Shown here: positions 6,001 through 27,000 of the stretch, piece after piece
How positions within the stretch are numbered: position 1 is the first letter of the stretch
How the letters are laid out: every line of letters starts with the position of its first letter
Source of the DNA: Pseudomonadota bacterium
GTDB taxonomy: Bacteria; Bdellovibrionota; Bdellovibrionia; Bdellovibrionales; Bdellovibrionaceae
Direction: 5' to 3'
Assembly (NCBI GenBank): GCA_041178425.1
Contig: JBEGVH010000009.1
Location: forward strand, 64,001 to 128,000
Length of the DNA stretch: 64,000 nt
Program-made: the position numbers

Positions 6001-9000
6001 TTCGGTCGACCCAGCCACATTGATAAAAGCGGTTATGGTGGCAGCCCCAATGAGATTCACGTTTTTGTATTGACCACTTTGAATAGCCTTGGTGGAACCC
6101 TTGATATCCGAAAGCACGAGCGTCCAATCAGAGGGCACCTTTGCAAACATTTGTGATTCACTGACCGCCGAAAAATTATCGAAGGCCGGGAGATTGAGGT
6201 AAAATAAAAACTCAAGCTTGTGGTCTGGCACTCATTGCCCCCTTCTCTTCAAAACTCTATTTTAGGCAGACTGCACCTAAATTCAACTCCAAAAGTGGTG
6301 CACCTCTTGCAACGAGTGATAAATCCGAACGGTTTAGTTCCCAGGAACTATGGCCCTTTCGTTTTGAGGTAAAATAATGTCGAAAAATTCGTCAGCGGGG
6401 CCCAAAATGCAGTTGAGAGAAAACACCATGGTCATTTTGAGCCTAGCAGGCCTCATCCTTGGAGGAAGTGTCCCCGCTGCGGCGAATCCCCTAGCGGTCG
6501 ATCGTTGTCAAACATCTCTTCAGTTCAATGACAACAAAAAGAGTGATCCAAGTGAGCCATTTCCGACCAATCCGCGCCTGAGTGTTCTTCTTGAAAATGG
6601 CGATGCTTTTAGTAAAGATGGAATTTCTCCTTTTTTTTATGGTTCGAGCTTTCGCCAACAATTTGAAATCGCTCAAAAACAATTGAGAATTCTCGGGGTT
6701 GAATTTGAAATTGAACAATCGAATGGGATTATCGAAAAGCTCCTCAAAAAACCAAAACTTATCATCAGGGCCAGCAAAAACGGAAGCCAGCTCAATCAAC
6801 TAGCCTTTGCCTTAAAAAAATCTCTTGGTGTTAGCCTTATTTACAAACCCCACGATTTGGGAAACACGGTCGCAGCCTACTATTTGGATTTTACCAAAGA
6901 GATCTGCCTTTCTCACAACAACATTATGTCGGGCAAACTCGATATCACCACCTTTCACGAAATCAGGCATGCGGCGCTCTCCTCAAAACTCGCAAGAGGC
7001 AACCCAACACTTTACGAAGGCAACTACCACAACTCAGGCAAAGTAAACAAAGATGATACCTATGGTAGCTATCTTTCGTTTCAAGAAATTTCGACCTACA
7101 GCCAAGATGCTAAATACGCTCACCGAGCCGTCTATGATCCATCAGCCGATAAACTGAGTGATGCCGACTACCGAACACTGGCTAGAAATGCAGGCTATGA
7201 AATCAGACATGCGGGCCTCATTATCAAAAAAGCGCAAGAGCACATTCAAGAGGCCCTCCATCTCGTCAATTCCGGAAAAGGCACCATTCACCTTGTTGAT
7301 TCGAATGACCGATTTCTCGTTTTGGAACTGATAATGAACGATGACGTCAGATTCGATTTTGCCATTCCATTGGAGGCACCCATCAACGAGATGTCGTCAC
7401 CACTGAGAGAATTATTAAGTCAACACATCAGAAAACTCGACAACTTGGCAGGAGAAAAACGAGATTACGTTCGAGAGCTCTATAAAGACCTCATCGATGA
7501 TGGACTGATAAAAATAAAAAAGAAGGAATGAGTCACCTTTAATCAAAAAACTTAAGGGCCTAATGTTTTATTTTTTATCAGAGTATTTCGCTTCGAGATA
7601 ATCGATTATAATCTTTTGATCGCCTTCCGAAATAGGCGCACCATAGGATTGAACCATTTTATGCACGGTTTTCTCCCACCCAGCTCGATTCATCACCGGA
7701 GCATTTGTTTTGATATACTCTAAACTGTGGCAAATAATACAATAGGCAGCAACCTTTTCACCGCCCACTCCCTCTAATAATGGTTCCAACGGAGGATTTT
7801 TAACCTCCCCCGCCCACAAGAAAATGGTCTGTCCGCAAACCAAAAAAAGTGCAATAAAACTCATTTTTTTCATCATACAAGCTCCCATCACTCGCCAACG
7901 ACTTGAATAGACTGGATCGCGTTATTATGGTATCCCGAAGGGTTGTGGACGGGACTCGTCGGTTGATTTTCTCCAGCGTCGTTCGTCGCTCTGGCCATAA
8001 CTTGATATTCGCTGCCTTTGTTGGGCGAAAATTTAAATGAAAAAGGGCGCCACGAATATTTACCTGGCTGCTCTCCCAATGTCGCCAAACTCCAATTTTT
8101 TCCAGCATCAATAGAAACTTCTACTTTTTGAATTCCATGACCACCATCCCAAGCAAATCCTTGGACACTGAATTCACTGCCACTCTTCAACTTCGCACCC
8201 TCTTTGAGATTGGTAATGAGTGAATTAATGAGTAACGATGAGATTGGAACCGATTTTTCATCTTCCTGCGAAGCAAAGCCTTTCTCCACCGTTGGAAACT
8301 TTCCTTTTTCAATCCGATAAGCTTTCTTCATCCAAAAATTATCTGAAGGCTTCGTTAGCGCTTCAATCGAAACCACCTCCTTAACCCAGTAACTCGCCAC
8401 CCAACCAGGAACGATGAGCCTCACCGGAAACCCATTACCCTTGGGCAGAGGTGCACCATTCAGCTCATAGGCAAGCAAGGTAGAGTCATCCATAGCTCTC
8501 TCGATTGGTATACTCTTCACGAAATCGGGGGTTCCCGGCAAGGTTGGAAAATCAGCACCGTTAAAAGCAATCTCGATAGTCTTTGGATTTATTCCTGCCC
8601 GCTGCAATACTTCTTTTAACCGAACGCCTCTCCACAAACCATTTCCAATGGCACCCTTACCCCACTGCACCCCTGGCACCCTTGGGTTAAACTCAGAACG
8701 GCGATTGCCTGCACACATTGACACCGCAGAAACCTCAACAGCAGTAAAGTCTTTCTTTAGTTTCGCCAAACTTAATTTGAATGGCTTTTCGAAACCCTCA
8801 CCATGAATTGAAATTTCCCATTTTTTTTCTACGACTTCTGTTGAATTGGGAAGATGACTGCGAACAAAGAATTTGTTGTTTGGTGTGTAGAGTGTATTGA
8901 GCTCTTCAATCGGTGTTTCGTAGTTGTGGGGGCGATCCGTCTGACGAATTAGGTCTGTTTCAAGATTTTTCTTGGGGGAGACAGCCTTCGAACCAGCAAC

Positions 9001-24000: not shown

Positions 24001-27000
24001 CCGGGAATAATCCGACCATTCATTGTCTCTGCTAAAGTATTTAGTGCTTCCGGAGTCACATCACGAGGCGACAAACCGGTGCCACCGGTCGTAATTATTA
24101 AATTGGGTTGAACTTTTTGAATCCATGCTTTGAGAGTTTCATTTATAGCGCTCACATTATCGGGAACGATTCCGTGGCTTAGGAGTTTGGAGTTGCGCTC
24201 AATGAGCCAGTCATGAATGACTGGCCCAGATCGATCTTCGTACTGGCCACGGGCTGCCCGATCACTAACAGTTAATGCACAGACTTGGATTTCGGCCCAG
24301 GCCTGATCGCCCACCAAATCCGTTTTTTTTATCAACCCACCGACTTCGCCTGCAGCAGAAGGCAAGGAGGGATTGTTCCACACCCCCGACTTACCCCCCT
24401 GCTTGAACTCGAGTTGAACATCACCAATTCGCAAAACTGGATCAACACCCTTGGCGAGATCATAGATGCAAAGAAGGGCTGCTGTCGCGCCACAAAGAGC
24501 CTCCATTTCAACACCGGTTTTACCAACCGTCTGGGCTTCACAAGAGACTTTTATTCGATTATTTTCTTCAAACTCAGTCCATACTCTGACCGACGACAGA
24601 TCGAGCGGATGGCAGAGCGGCAAAAGGTCGATGGTTCGTTTGGCAGCCTGAATACCCGCCACCTCGCAAAGCACAAGAACATCGCCTTTTGGCAGGCGAC
24701 GCTCTTTAATCAATTGAAGAGTTTCGGGCTGAGCGTAAAAAAATCCGCTGGCCCGGGCAATACGATGGGTTTCCCCCTTAGCCGAGATATCAATCATTCG
24801 AAAATTAGCCACCGATTTCGGCGAAATTGGCTGTTGTTCCATAAATTCCTTTTTGCAATTGATGGGATATTTTTTTGTTAACCATAAGTTCTTTTATCAC
24901 ATTGGGAAGATCTCTCATTTGCTCGTCGCTTTGAAGCCACGGGCGAAGATCAAGATCTCCATCTCCAAACAAACAGAGGCGTAATTTTCCGCGGGCAGAA
25001 ACCCGCAAGCGATTGCAAGAATGGCAAAAATCGTTAGAGTACGGTGCAATCAAACCAATCGAACCCTGAAATTCTGGGTGCACAAAAACATCGGCAGGGC
25101 CATCTTGAAGTCCTCTCTCGATGGACTCCCAACCACGCCGAAACAACTCTTCCCTAACGACTCCCGTCGATAAATGTCGGTCGGCAAAAAAATCCAAATT
25201 ATCTCCCGTCTTCATCAATTCGATAAACCGTATACTAATCTGACGATTTTTTGCGTAATTGAGGAAAGCCCCAACTTCAGAATCATTGAGTCCTTTTAAA
25301 AGAACAACATTCACTTTGATTTTTGTGAAACCAATGACCAAGGCATCATCAATACAATCGATGATTTGATGAAATAGCGGTGATCCTGTAATTTTGGCAA
25401 AACTTTCATTTTTCAAACTATCAAGACTTATATTTAAAGCCGACAAACCAGCTTTTTTTAAATCAGGCAAGAGCGACCTTAAGCGAAAGGCATTCGTTGT
25501 AAGCGCTATATTTTTGATGTTTTTTTGGGACGAAATTGTTTCGATAATTTCTAAAATATCTTTTCGAAGAGTTGGTTCTCCTCCAGTAATGCGAACTTTC
25601 TGAAAACCCAAAGATGAAAAACCATGAACCAAACGACGAATTTCTTCCAGACTCATTTCATTGGCAGTCTCGCATGGATTCTTCTTGTATCCATTAGGCA
25701 AGCAATAGGAACAGCGAAAATTACAACGATCGGTCACCGACAGTCGCAAGTATTTAAATGTTCGCCCGAATGAATCCCTTAACTCGCCCATGATTCCCCT
25801 TGTAGAGTGTTAGGAATTTCAATTTCTCAAAATTCCCTGGTAGCCAAAACATTTTGACCACGACATCAACCGCTTATTAATTTTCAAATTAACTTAGCCG
25901 ATGATGCTCGGAGACCTTTTTCTTAAAATAAACAACTGTTATAGTAGCCAGCAATAAAAGAGCTTCGCAAGATTTTTCTCCTGTCCTTTTTTGACTCAGT
26001 TTGCCGAGGGAATAAGCCTATAGAAAGGGCCACATCAAACATCTGAACTTGCTATTTTAGCGCCTCTCTGATGATGGCAGAAGCTTGATCCATCGCCCAT
26101 ACCACCAAAGCAATAACAAGCACAATGGTGCCGACCTCGTTCCACATGGCTTGCCCCTGGTACTTTAACAACATAGTACCAATGCCCCCACCTCCCACAA
26201 ATCCAATAATCGTAGCCATCCTCACGTTGGTGTCCCAGCGGTAAACAGTAAACGAAATAAACGGCAAAACCACTTGTGGAACAATCGCAAACCATATGGT
26301 TTGAAGATGACTCGCTCCCGTCGATAAAATGCCGTCGATCGGCTCCTCGCTCACCGATTCAACCATTTCAGAGTACTGTTTTGCCAAAGAGGCTACCGAA
26401 TGAATCATCAGCGCCAACATTCCCGCAAAAGGACCAATCCCCACCCAAACAGAAAAGATTATAGCCCAGATCAGAGCCTCAACCGACCGAATGAAGTTAA
26501 GCAAGGTTCTCAAAATAAAATAAATTGAGCGGGCCACCGGATGCCGCATAATATTTTTGGCACATAAAAAACTCAATACGAAGGCCAATGGAATCGCAAA
26601 TATCGTAGCAACAAAAGCCATAAAAATCGTCACTAATACGTTGTAAATAGCTTGTGGTAATAATCTCCAGTTCGGTTGAAAGAGCGCCACGAAAAGATTG
26701 AAAGCTCCTTTCAACCCTCTTTCATCGAAAATTTCCCATAAGGTGGCTTTTGTGACAATAAGACCAACACCTGCTGCAACCACCAGGGTGACCACAGACT
26801 GGATTCCCCAAAACGACCGCCAAAACGGAAGAGGGCCTGATTGAGCAGAAGAGCTAGGCACTGCAAACAAAATTCGCCCAAGGGTGGAAATTTGTTTTCC
26901 TTCAAACAAAACACCAACTCCAAAACCAACGAGGGTCAAAAAAAGACCCGACCAACTTATCAGCGACACATAGGTCATAAAGAATTCCTCATCGGTGCCC

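Follow-up and report, generated by a model that had tools for sequence, protein, structure and literature searches.

SoxCD is a sulfane dehydrogenase whose substrate sulfur sits on the C-terminal cysteine arm of SoxY. DsrC/TusE, which acts with DsrAB, carries a penultimate Cys on a flexible C-terminal arm (...PKPTGCV). Sud-PsrABC is a persulfide relay to a metal site of the DMSO reductase family, Psr being a low-potential, quinol-linked reductase. In the metallopterin-dependent ergothioneine synthase (MES), a fused cysteine desulfurase is the donor and a C-S bond is the product (PMC9516567). MES and Sud-PsrABC are precedents for a persulfide relay that feeds a DMSO-reductase-family metal site. 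Unlike the system described here, both lie outside the type II enzymes and lack separate carrier proteins with a Cys arm.

Here, we describe a seven-gene cassette built around a relative of the type II DMSO reductases (PcrAB, EbdABC, DdhABC, SerABC, and ClrABC). This set is the core of a gene island acquired by a Bdellovibrio-like bacterium, and a literature search found no published description of it.

A Conserved Cassette in an Acquired Island

The window analyzed, to which all coordinates refer, is a stretch of 64,000 nucleotides (contig JBEGVH010000009.1, positions 64,001 to 128,000). The host PheS is 75-78% identical to that of Bdellovibrio spp. The first-pass annotation was right to see a molybdoenzyme island in this Bdellovibrio-like genome, and the island was gained by lateral transfer. 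None of four congeners has the block, nor does any of the other 181 genomes of the family. Within the order, the alpha subunit occurs in 2 of 384 genomes (this genome, G000, included), with G320 as the sole other carrier, and in none of the 181 other family genomes or the four congeners. All the gene content that had been annotated lies at the positions given, namely SorAB, a pair of rhodaneses, YeeE, an alpha-beta-gamma enzyme of the type II DMSO reductase group with Tat export, and a Moco operon behind a Moco riboswitch; the sulfur theme of the island also stands.

Sixty-seven loci related by alpha were compared, with flanks fetched up to 10 kb per side. The cassette runs from a periplasmic tandem rhodanese through YeeE, an anchored rhodanese-like protein, alpha, beta, and a gamma-cytochrome c fusion to a 142-aa periplasmic protein. 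The full set of seven genes was found in 51 of the 67 loci, which belong to Myxococcota, Bdellovibrionota, and Aquificota; in the remaining 16, contig ends fall exactly where the absent genes are expected. Gene order is identical in 49 loci. The cassette is common to myxobacteria and hot-spring sulfur oxidizers, with Sulfurihydrogenibium yellowstonense SS-5 among its carriers, and the source names on gamma relatives include S. azorense, Hydrogenothermus marinus, and Persephonella. SoxY was found neither in this genome nor in three of five other cassette genomes tested; thus, the module is independent of Sox.

Catalytic Subunits

Profile matches, structure relatives, and motifs place alpha (12231-15146, plus strand) among the type II DMSO reductases as a Tat-exported Mo-bisPGD enzyme. 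Like the described members, it has a Tat-like N-terminus (MTVSRRDLLK; 61 of 64 aligned N-termini show the RR motif), the FS0 motif H-x3-C-x3-C...C (H81-C85-C89...C124), and, at the position of the Mo ligand, an Asp (Asp220) that aligns with the GD aspartate of PcrA. The motif VRPYIASYVGDMFPGVS is common to 42 of the 64 alpha sequences. Unlike those members, alpha falls below TIGR03479 (794.8 bits, cut-off 984.75). Its best solved relative, the perchlorate reductase PcrA, reaches 396 bits (1.9e-117), whereas orthologues exceed 1,450 bits and are 59-75% identical across three phyla (61-75% for the best 120 relatives). Judged by sequence, alpha is a separate, unnamed, and uncharacterized clade of the group, and not the Ddh/Ser/Clr-type enzyme it had been called. 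Residues I214, A215, and W514 of alpha align with PcrA F164, Y165, and W461, such that the aromatic pair F164-Y165 of the PcrA gate becomes I214-A215. The legend of Fig. 9 in the PcrA source names F164 and W461 as tunnel-gate residues (PMC6650914).

The beta subunit (15170-16165, plus strand) resembles its type II counterparts in carrying four Fe-S clusters and exceeding the TIGR03478 cut-off (522.5 against 480.7 bits); 15 Cys are invariant in its alignment. Gamma (16158-17324, plus strand; EB_dh and Cytochrom_C) joins an EbdC-type heme-b domain to a C-terminal mono-heme cytochrome c (CIGCH, C280xxCH), and its heme-b residues Met143 and Lys234 occupy the places of EbdC M108 and K201. Unlike type II gamma subunits, it is fused to a cytochrome c and remains below TIGR03477 (104.9 bits, cut-off 169.85). 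Such a high-potential heme b-heme c chain fits electron delivery to cytochrome c. The first-pass annotation had presented direct wiring of gamma to cytochrome c as a novelty of this predator; the c-type heme is indeed fused, but all 57 aligned gamma sequences (the window's included) combine heme b with heme c and retain the CxxCH. A further difference from type II systems is the lack of a NarJ/DdhD/SerD-type chaperone in the operon and the genome, as had been noted before: PF02613 has no match in this genome, whose completeness is 100%.

The adjacent genes for a SorB-like mono-heme cytochrome c with a signal peptide (7568-7876, minus strand; CIICH) and a SorA-like sulfite dehydrogenase catalytic subunit (7888-9081, minus strand; Oxidored_molyb 3.6e-52, Mo-co_dimer 5.4e-15) resemble SorAB of Starkeya novella, which provides the closest solved relatives (2blf_B, 1.6e-11; 2blf_A, 2.1e-86). 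SorB and SorA are also the top NCBIfam families, although both subunits differ from the Starkeya proteins in lying below the equivalog cut-offs (NF052246, 71.9 against 93 bits; NF052245, 383.7 against 600 bits). Another difference is the SorA signal, which is Sec-like and has no twin arginine, here as in locus L027; upstream of its ATG, a stop lies eight codons away with no start codon between. Since SorA is far closer to the bacterial enzyme than to the sulfite oxidase of animals (about 1e-48), the earlier label "eukaryote-like" was misleading. Its match to SoxC (1.3e-28) is also far poorer than that to SorA. The claimed rarity of Mo-co_dimer holds for the family (none of 181 other genomes), but in the order it occurs in 3 of 384 genomes, G000 included, rather than 1 of 383. 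SorA and alpha share one contig in G320.

Sulfur-Transfer and Cysteine-Armed Proteins

The operon differs from type II systems in what always accompanies the enzyme: a pair of rhodaneses, YeeE, and an OB-fold protein with a Cys arm, for which binding to alpha is predicted. The first is a periplasmic two-domain rhodanese with a signal peptide (9434-10393, plus strand; two Pfam Rhodanese stretches), which is the leading cassette gene in 49 of the 51 loci that are complete. Its active-site Cys276, together with Cys81 and Cys87, is invariant in 62 sequences; it matches 3-mercaptopyruvate sulfurtransferase (3.7e-26) and, more weakly, ExtH, which belongs to an operon for selenite/tellurite reduction (1e-13). 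The YeeE/YedE-type (Sulf_transp) membrane protein (10430-11557, plus strand; PF04143, 82.1 bits) has invariant Cys99 and Cys321, with Cys103 in 91% of aligned relatives. It reaches only 36.9 bits against TsuA (NF052577, cut-off 400), and the YeeE of locus L064 shows a faint YedE/FdhT match (25.9 bits).

The second rhodanese-homology protein, RhdS (11698-12162, plus strand; Pfam Rhodanese 2.6e-09), has an N-terminal membrane helix anchor and no Cys at the usual rhodanese active-site place. Its arm reads ...PPKxxxGGGCL, the GGGCL terminus is found in 65 of 65 relatives, and Cys79, Cys113, and Cys153 are invariant. The charge bias fits an N-in/C-out topology. The last gene encodes p142 (17327-17755, plus strand), a secreted protein of 142 aa with no sequence match in Pfam, NCBIfam, or the PDB. 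This is the gene (g00396) that had been left as "unknown" with the chaperone lacking; it encodes no chaperone but a probable OB-fold protein whose invariant FKGCL end makes Cys141 penultimate (56 of 56 relatives). Among 44 library representatives, 28 end in GCL or ACL, the rest being mostly fragments or weak multi-domain matches. The structure model (pLDDT 88.7) predicts an OB fold with an unstructured, flexible tail (131-142), and its structural matches are weak OB-fold ones only. Of the 13,802 ORFs of at least 60 aa in this genome, only 4 terminate in GC[LVI]; two are RhdS and p142, and none of the other GC[VLI]-ending frames is plausibly protein-coding.

Binding of p142 to alpha was modeled without cofactors, using alpha residues 88-971 and the analyst's own alignments. 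The complex reached an ipSAE of 0.80 (median of three runs), compared with 0.00 for the best of three controls; 116 of 157 solved complexes but only 2 of 215 mismatched pairs attain this mark, and a score at this level speaks for binding without demonstrating it. The runs had at least 78% of contacts in common, with a partner pLDDT of at least 81. The modeled interface comprises alpha 214 and 515-517 and p142 129, 131, 135-138, and 142, a predicted position on the substrate tunnel of alpha, and we propose that p142 is a carrier or an extra subunit.

The arms resemble that of DsrC/TusE in placing a penultimate Cys and one aliphatic residue after a Pro/Lys-rich stretch (p142 ...PKPKPGAFKGCL, RhdS ...PPKxxAGGGCL), and by analogy they may enter the active-site channel of a partner. 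Fold and compartment differ from those of the cytoplasmic DsrC, however: one putative carrier is a secreted OB-fold protein and the other has a rhodanese-like domain, and their partner is a molybdoenzyme rather than a sirohaem enzyme. As a working analogy, the system may also be compared with SoxCD-SoxYZ, which likewise unites a periplasmic molybdoenzyme and cytochrome c with a small carrier that has a near-C-terminal Cys on a glycine-rich arm. No homology exists between the two: the Mo enzyme here is Mo-bisPGD and not of the sulfite oxidase family, and p142, an OB fold in its model, has no SoxY Pfam match.

Cofactor Supply

The Moco genes (18668-25791, minus strand) lie behind a full-length (1-135) Moco riboswitch aptamer, RF01055 (25779-25925, minus strand; 57.8 bits, gathering score 36, E 3e-11). 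On the same strand follow the radical-SAM enzyme MoaA (24805-25791; Radical_SAM, Mob_synth_C), MoaC fused to a MoaB/Mog-type domain (23793-24842; PF01967 4.7e-45, PF00994 6.2e-29), a MOT1-type MFS molybdate transporter (22706-23809; PF16983 1.4e-28, two stretches), and the molybdenum insertase MoeA (21460-22722; MoeA_N, MoCF_biosynth, MoeA_C). MoaD (21195-21458; PF02597 8.2e-06) and MoaE (20693-21244; PF02391 1e-26) together form molybdopterin synthase, and a MobA-like guanylyltransferase (20139-20777; PF12804 8.3e-23) makes the MGD form that alpha needs. A small protein with a weak DUF7009 match (19759-20142; PF22668 0.00024, below cut-off) and a MoeB/MoeZ-type adenylyltransferase fused to a rhodanese (18668-19759; ThiF 2.1e-70, Rhodanese 2e-14) precede the last gene of this minus-strand operon, an Mrp/ApbC-type Fe-S cluster carrier ATPase (17739-18611; PF10609 1.2e-89; NF041136 271 bits, cut-off 450). 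In 27 of 67 loci, the ATPase gene and the cassette are neighbors.

Proposed Function and Alternatives

The reading that we tentatively prefer is that sulfane or thiosulfate sulfur held on cysteine arms is oxidized, electrons pass to cytochrome c, and SorAB removes the sulfite. Gene content, gene order, motifs, and distribution are observed, and the p142 fold and its binding to alpha are modeled; what the enzyme acts on, which way its electrons run, and what each carrier does are inferred. In favor of this reading are the fixed cassette and its range of hosts, the invariant and rare Gly-Cys-Leu ends, the p142 and complex models, the replaced PcrA gate, SorA near alpha in 14 of 67 loci and on its contig in G320, the heme b-heme c gamma, and the independence from Sox. 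Cys276 of the secreted tandem rhodanese would take sulfane sulfur from thiosulfate, releasing sulfite, or from polysulfide. The persulfide would then be passed to the penultimate Cys of the flexible arms of RhdS (...GGGCL) and p142 (...FKGCL), and a loaded arm would enter the alpha tunnel, where the terminal sulfur would be oxidized via oxygen-atom transfer at the Asp-ligated Mo. Electrons would flow from FS0 through the four clusters of beta, the heme b of gamma, and its fused heme c to a soluble cytochrome c and a terminal oxidase. The oxidized sulfur would leave as sulfite, which the neighboring SorAB would convert to sulfate along with that from the rhodanese step. Thiosulfate or a related sulfur species would cross the inner membrane through YeeE, inward or outward, and the riboswitch-controlled operon (molybdate carrier, MobA, Fe-S carrier ATPase) would supply cofactors in a lineage mostly without them.

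Several points count against this reading. We know of no type II DMSO reductase that acts on a protein-bound substrate, and a heme-c-linked gamma could just as well serve a reductase by feeding it electrons, the arrangement of Ser and Clr. The periplasmic location of the RhdS domain is suggested by charge bias only, a purely periplasmic pathway gives YeeE no clear role, and SorA lies within the fetched flanks in just 14 of 67 loci. Moreover, Hydrogenothermus marinus, a hydrogen oxidizer, also has gamma.

Alternatively, but with rather low probability, the substrate of the Mo enzyme is a free sulfur compound of small size (e.g., thiosulfate, polysulfide, sulfide, or sulfite). RhdS and p142 would then not carry the substrate but be accessory, for example as a lid or an additional subunit, a periplasmic stabilizer replacing the NarJ-type chaperone that the genome lacks, or thiol partners resolving an enzyme-bound intermediate. 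The sulfur context fits equally, p142 is a predicted alpha binder under either reading, and in the cited table the known type II enzymes all use small molecules (PMC10100899). However, one invariant Gly-Cys-Leu end on a Pro/Lys/Gly-rich tail is common to two scaffolds, rhodanese-like and OB-fold, and thus looks like a docking or chemistry element and not a structural lid; p142, being secreted via a Sec-type signal, cannot act in cytoplasmic cofactor insertion.

A respiratory or detoxifying reductase of selenate, tellurate, or chlorate, of the Ser/Clr/Pcr kind and fed by cytochrome c via the fused heme c, is unlikely. The rhodaneses, YeeE, and Cys-armed proteins would here handle a reactive product, e.g., selenite as selenotrisulfide or perselenide. 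PcrA as the best solved relative of alpha, the secondary ExtH match, and the faint YedE/FdhT match speak for such an enzyme, and some Sulfurihydrogenibium species reduce selenate. Conversely, the 3-mercaptopyruvate sulfurtransferase and TsuA matches are the stronger ones, chlorite dismutase was not found in any of five cassette genomes tested, and the carrier S. yellowstonense is a strict aerobe. Selenium chemistry would also leave the SorAB linkage without a place, and the aromatic gate of PcrA is lost.

The first-pass annotation's own proposal, a Ddh-like dehydrogenase for DMS or a related organosulfur compound with loosely linked sulfur-transfer genes, cites 37.6% identity to DdhA and 63% to DdhB and agrees in direction with Ddh, a dehydrogenase towards cytochrome c, but it is very improbable given the tight alpha clade and its distance from solved relatives, fixed partners that DMS oxidation would not need, a fused gamma, no DdhD-type chaperone, and nothing that indicates DMS.

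With arm-bound sulfur as the preferred substrate, the core of the island may, on a similarly tentative footing, be a self-contained periplasmic sulfur-oxidizing module that moves between phyla as a single operon.

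Organization of the Molybdoenzyme Island

The genes named in the first-pass annotation were all recovered by an open reading frame listing and family scans of the window. Seven of them form a tight plus-strand operon, here termed the cassette, which encodes a secreted two-domain rhodanese (9434–10393), a YeeE/Sulf_transp membrane protein (10430–11557; PF04143, 82.1 bits against a cut-off of 27), RhdS, a small protein homologous to rhodanese and bearing a membrane helix at its N-terminus (11698–12162), the alpha subunit of a Mo-bisPGD enzyme with a Tat signal (12231–15146), a four-cluster beta subunit (15170–16165; TIGR03478, 522.5 bits against a cut-off of 480.7), a gamma subunit that joins an EbdC-type haem-b domain and a mono-haem cytochrome c in one chain (16158–17324), and p142, a secreted 142-aa protein belonging to no family (17327–17755). 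This operon diverges from minus-strand sorAB, and a ten-gene minus-strand Moco operon converges on it from the right. The latter is led by a Moco riboswitch (RF01055; 25779–25925, minus strand; 57.8 bits against a gathering score of 36, covering model positions 1–135 of 135), which lies directly 5′ of moaA and is followed by moaC-moaB/mog, a MOT1-type molybdate carrier, moeA, moaD, moaE, mobA, a small unknown gene, moeB-rhodanese, and an Mrp/ApbC Fe-S carrier ATPase. Two of these minus-strand genes are fusions, one of MoaC with a MoaB/Mog-type domain (23793–24842) and the other of MoeB with a rhodanese domain, similar to MoeZ (18668–19759). The 3′ ends of p142 (plus) and the Mrp/ApbC gene (minus) overlap by 17 bases (17739–17755); thus, the two converging operons have a common terminus. 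A scan of positions 7000–26500 for promoters and terminators gave counts not above those of shuffled sequence (39 vs. 30.0, sd 5.4, and 19 vs. 21.8, respectively).

The sorAB pair consists of a SorB-like cytochrome c (7568–7876, minus strand) and an adjoining SorA-like molybdoenzyme (7888–9081, minus strand), whose best solved relatives are subunits of the Starkeya novella sulfite:cytochrome c oxidoreductase (1.6e-11 and 2.1e-86, respectively). The SorA-like protein possesses both Mo-binding and dimerisation domains and has SorA as its nearest characterised relative, although both subunits score under their equivalog cut-offs. Animal sulfite oxidase follows at ~1e-48, and an identity as SoxC is ruled out by a match of 1.3e-28 as against 2.1e-86 for SorA. 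The sequence contains the Mo-cysteine motif CAGNRR. Its N-terminus, MKLFSFGSHFCYLFLIAFNCLGLA, is devoid of arginine, and an in-frame stop lies eight codons upstream of the ATG; hence there is no Tat signal, which is unusual for a periplasmic Moco enzyme. The signal is likewise Sec-like and free of a twin arginine in the SorA of a Bacteriovorax-labelled locus (L027:18664–19845), and the cassette-adjacent SorA proteins of Myxococcota loci carry RR motifs.

Host Genome and Origin of the Island

The host genome (3.06 Mb; scored as 100% complete with 1.17% contamination) is Bdellovibrio-like, the PheS encoded in the window being 75–78% identical to named Bdellovibrio proteins. Counting the host itself, alpha occurs in two of 384 genomes of the order and the Mo-co_dimer domain in three of 384; neither occurs in the 181 other genomes of the family, and alpha is missing from all four congeners. 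In the other order genome with alpha, SorA lies ~12 kb away on the same contig. MoaA is found in 17 of 182 family genomes. Congeners conserve the sequence to the right of the riboswitch (from ~26,050) and to the left of ~4,380 at 65–81% identity, while the block between is not conserved; the ~21.6 kb block is therefore a lineage-specific gain within a 273-kb contig and not a binning artefact. Base composition is unbroken at the island, and so there is no compositional sign of recent transfer. As the left and right flanks sit on different contigs in the congeners, a clean insertion site is not definable.

Three genes to the left of sorB (4441–7531) are likewise missing from the four congeners and may be part of the same acquired block: an open reading frame with no NCBIfam match (4441–5043), a DUF3095 protein (5047–6231), and a 384-aa protein of no family (6377–7531). 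Elsewhere, the window carries a gene of the tryptophanase/tyrosine phenol-lyase family (58116–59501, minus strand; NF009709, 621.8 bits). The host encodes a single true Mo-bisPGD enzyme as well as TatC, and SoxY was not found in its genome. The window DNA is present in freshwater metagenome sequencing runs, two of which may be its source, and no RNA run containing it is listed.

A Distinct Clade of Type II Molybdoenzymes

Nitrate, chlorate, selenate, DMS, and hydrocarbon chemistry is the textbook domain of the type II DMSO reductases. Several features place the cassette enzyme among them. Alpha begins with MTVSRRDLLK, an RR-type motif being present in 61 of 64 aligned N-termini, and has the FS0 motif H81-x3-C85-x3-C89...C124. 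Its Asp220 aligns with the YGD-motif Asp of PcrA, the solved perchlorate reductase alpha subunit (chain position 170), at the place of the Mo ligand, and is kept in the top 10 motif variants across the 64 sequences; Asp is the listed Mo ligand of the type II group in a table of PMC10100899. In gamma, Met143 and Lys234 occupy the places of EbdC M108 and K201. Beta passes its curated NCBI cut-off, and alpha and gamma fall below those of their best-scoring families, alpha with 794.8 bits against 984.75 for TIGR03479 and gamma with 104.9 bits against 169.85 for TIGR03477. The closest solved relatives of alpha are PcrA (1.9e-117, 396 bits) and EbdA (4.8e-97).

The enzyme had previously been read as Ddh/Ser/Clr-type, an assignment that is not supported. 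Of 1,277 relatives of alpha recovered from 5.8 billion proteins, the best 120, leaving aside the window's own protein, are 61–75% identical (1,456–1,766 bits) and all generically named. Where an orthologue of DdhABC, SerABC, or ClrABC would be expected to have a free-standing gamma of ~240 aa with haem b only, the window gamma has 388 aa and a fused CxxCH domain. Judged by sequence, the enzyme is thus type II without being Ddh/Ser/Clr, in a clade set apart by score gaps rather than by a tree. The proposed wiring of gamma to cytochrome c is borne out as regards the fusion itself, which is not peculiar to this predator: the haem-b/haem-c fusion occurs in 57 of 57 aligned gamma sequences, the window's included, and is therefore a trait of the clade.

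The reported lack of a recognisable NarJ/DdhD-like chaperone was borne out. A search for NarJ/DdhD/SerD/EbdD-type chaperones (PF02613, E ≤ 0.01) gave no match in the 100%-complete host genome and was positive in five control genomes, and no NarJ-type gene lies between the rhodanese and p142 genes in any of 67 related loci. Among known type II enzymes, an identity as NXR is ruled out by a score of only 5.2e-30 for Kuenenia NxrA, and (per)chlorate reduction is unlikely, since none of the five cassette genomes tested has chlorite dismutase.

Conservation of the Cassette Across Phyla

When a single genome of each species was scanned for the pattern, 318 related stretches emerged; the best 80 gave 67 loci, whose cassette genes were identified by tblastn with the window proteins. 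The full seven-gene set is present in 51 of these loci, and in the other 16 a contig end precedes the missing genes. Gene order is identical in 49 of the 51 complete loci; the two exceptions, both from Bdellovibrionota, differ only in a downstream shift of the rhodanese and/or YeeE genes. By record title, the loci derive from Myxococcota (Archangium, Myxococcus, Anaeromyxobacter), Bdellovibrionota (including Bacteriovorax), and Aquificota (Hydrogenothermaceae, Persephonella, Sulfurihydrogenibium yellowstonense SS-5), and the source names of gamma relatives include Sulfurihydrogenibium azorense, Hydrogenothermus marinus, and Persephonella. Alpha was detected in 42 of 148 genomes searched from the Aquificota order. 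In three Aquificota genomes (G518, G513, and G521) the alpha match contains in-frame stops, eight of them in G518, which may reflect decay of the gene or faulty assembly. The Myxococcota and Bdellovibrionota cassette genomes tested gave no SoxY match. The Hydrogenothermaceae are not known to possess SoxCD.

An Mrp gene is adjacent in 27 of the 67 loci and SorA in 14. In YeeE, which reaches 36.9 bits against a cut-off of 400 for the TsuA equivalog, Cys99 and Cys321 are invariant and Cys103 is kept in 91%. A second beta-like gene follows the cassette in 17 of the 67 loci; in two annotated Aquificota loci this gene encodes the TtrB-like subunit of a Ttr/Psr-type FeS-NrfD-Mo enzyme. These two loci (L064:15749–22296 and L043:15854–22392) carry, directly after the cassette, genes for the TtrB-like FeS protein, an NrfD membrane subunit, a Mo-bisPGD subunit of 1071–1095 aa whose best, weak match is PhsA, a TorD/NarJ-like chaperone, and a polyferredoxin. 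In them, the cassette enzyme is accompanied by a second molybdoenzyme of the sulfur type.

Two Proteins With a C-Terminal Cysteine Arm

Two cassette proteins end in Gly-Cys-Leu. RhdS has no Cys at the usual rhodanese active-site place, its invariant cysteines being 79, 113, and 153, and terminates in ...PPKxxxGGGCL in 65 of 65 relatives. The charge bias around its anchor helix (mean net +2.2 before and −0.2 after, 60 sequences) suggests that the rhodanese-like domain faces the periplasm. The second protein, p142, terminates in ...PKPKxGxFKGCL in 56 of 56 sequences. Only four of 13,802 open frames of at least 60 aa in the host genome end in GC[LVI], and two of these are RhdS and p142. A p142 profile search of 1.84 billion representatives delineated a tight family (44 at E ≤ 0.001, 29 at ≤ 1e-10), 28 of the 44 ending in GCL or ACL, four distant ones among them; the remainder are mostly fragments or weak matches in long proteins.

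The p142 model (pLDDT 88.7) shows a beta-barrel accompanied by helices, with residues 131–142 forming an unstructured tail. No sequence match for p142 was obtained in Pfam, NCBIfam, or the PDB, and its Atlas matches are “hypothetical protein” clusters only. Foldseek found nothing in the PDB at E ≤ 0.001 and returned only weak OB-fold rows; p142 is OB-fold-like. A role for p142 as a NarJ-like chaperone is ruled out by its Sec-type signal peptide and OB fold. Neither p142 nor RhdS matches the SoxY or DsrC families.

Predicted Docking of p142 on Alpha

A complex of alpha residues 88–971 and mature p142 (27–142) was modelled from separate alignments and without cofactors. The ipSAE was 0.80 (runs of 0.85, 0.76, and 0.80), compared with 0.00 for the best of three controls; the ipSAE mark is reached by 116 of 157 solved complexes and two of 215 mismatched pairs, a calibration that is rough because it relies on our own alignments. 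The runs share at least 78% of contacts, with a partner pLDDT of at least 81. The model thus supports, but does not establish, binding of p142 to alpha. Its confident interface, available as residue lists rather than coordinates, includes p142 residues 129, 131, 135–138, and 142 (the C-terminal residue) and, on the alpha side, 214 and 515–517. In the PcrA alignment, alpha I214, A215, and W514 take the places of F164, Y165, and W461, the tunnel-gate residues according to the Fig. 9 legend of PMC6650914. Two bulky aromatics of the PcrA gate are replaced by Ile-Ala in the clade, and the gate-region motif VRPYIASYVGDMFPGVS is conserved in 42 of 64 alpha sequences. The p142 tail is therefore predicted to lie at the mouth of the substrate tunnel.

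Possible Mechanism and Alternative Readings

That the enzyme is constantly accompanied by sulfur transferases, a relative of thiosulfate transporters, and a sulfite dehydrogenase points to inorganic sulfur chemistry. In addition, the haem-b/haem-c output suits a dehydrogenase that passes its electrons to cytochrome c, and, from established redox potentials, low-potential sulfur reduction would not be drivable. Since a Gly-Cys-Leu arm is common to two unrelated scaffolds, one of which is predicted to dock on the tunnel, we tentatively propose, at a little under even odds, that the arm swings and would present covalently bound sulfur to the Mo site. The fuller proposal, which is somewhat more doubtful, is a hitherto unrecognised, Sox-independent periplasmic sulfur oxidation in which the type II Mo-bisPGD enzyme would act on sulfur held covalently on the penultimate Cys of two dedicated carriers, p142 (Cys141) and RhdS (Cys153), their arms threading into the tunnel, with the module moving laterally as a plug-in along with its Moco supply.

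Carrier-arm systems are exemplified by SoxY with SoxCD and DsrC with DsrAB. The cassette arm would resemble these in working mode without sharing family membership; all that SoxY, DsrC, p142, and RhdS have in common is a flexible arm carrying a Cys close to the C-terminus. Sud-Psr offers a precedent for persulfide delivery to a metal site of the DMSO reductase family. Another is MES, which involves a cysteine desulfurase domain, as described in PMC9516567.

Three other readings are less favoured. A small-molecule sulfur substrate, with the arms as accessories, is considered unlikely. An oxyanion reductase of the selenate type, with the partners handling its product, is more unlikely still. A DMS or organosulfur dehydrogenase, which the first-pass annotation had entertained, is highly improbable.

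Significance

The full-text literature, with supplements and subscription journals outside the search, yielded no account of the cassette, of type II enzymes partnered by rhodanese and YeeE, or of GCL-armed proteins, and the cassette is not mentioned in the parts consulted of PMC3665934, PMC6918859, and PMC10100899. The kind of enzyme is known, and its way of handling the substrate is possibly new. The type II family would gain a new kind of substrate handling from a large clade linked to sulfur transferases and Cys-armed partners. If the carrier-bound-sulfur reading is true, this would be the first protein-borne substrate for the type II DMSO reductase family and a functional counterpart of SoxCD-SoxYZ and DsrAB-DsrC made of unrelated parts.

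Such a pathway could explain sulfane-sulfur oxidation in organisms without SoxCD or Dsr. Given that alpha occurs in 42 of 148 Aquificota-order genomes and that 318 related stretches were found among species genomes, the clade could contribute sizeably to the turnover of thiosulfate and sulfur. The cassette is widespread, spanning at least three phyla, and the proposal is testable in the cultured carriers Sulfurihydrogenibium, Persephonella, and Hydrogenothermus. For the Bdellovibrio-like host, the island represents a whole molybdoenzyme economy acquired laterally, a rare event, with transporter, riboswitch, cofactor synthesis, and two enzymes.
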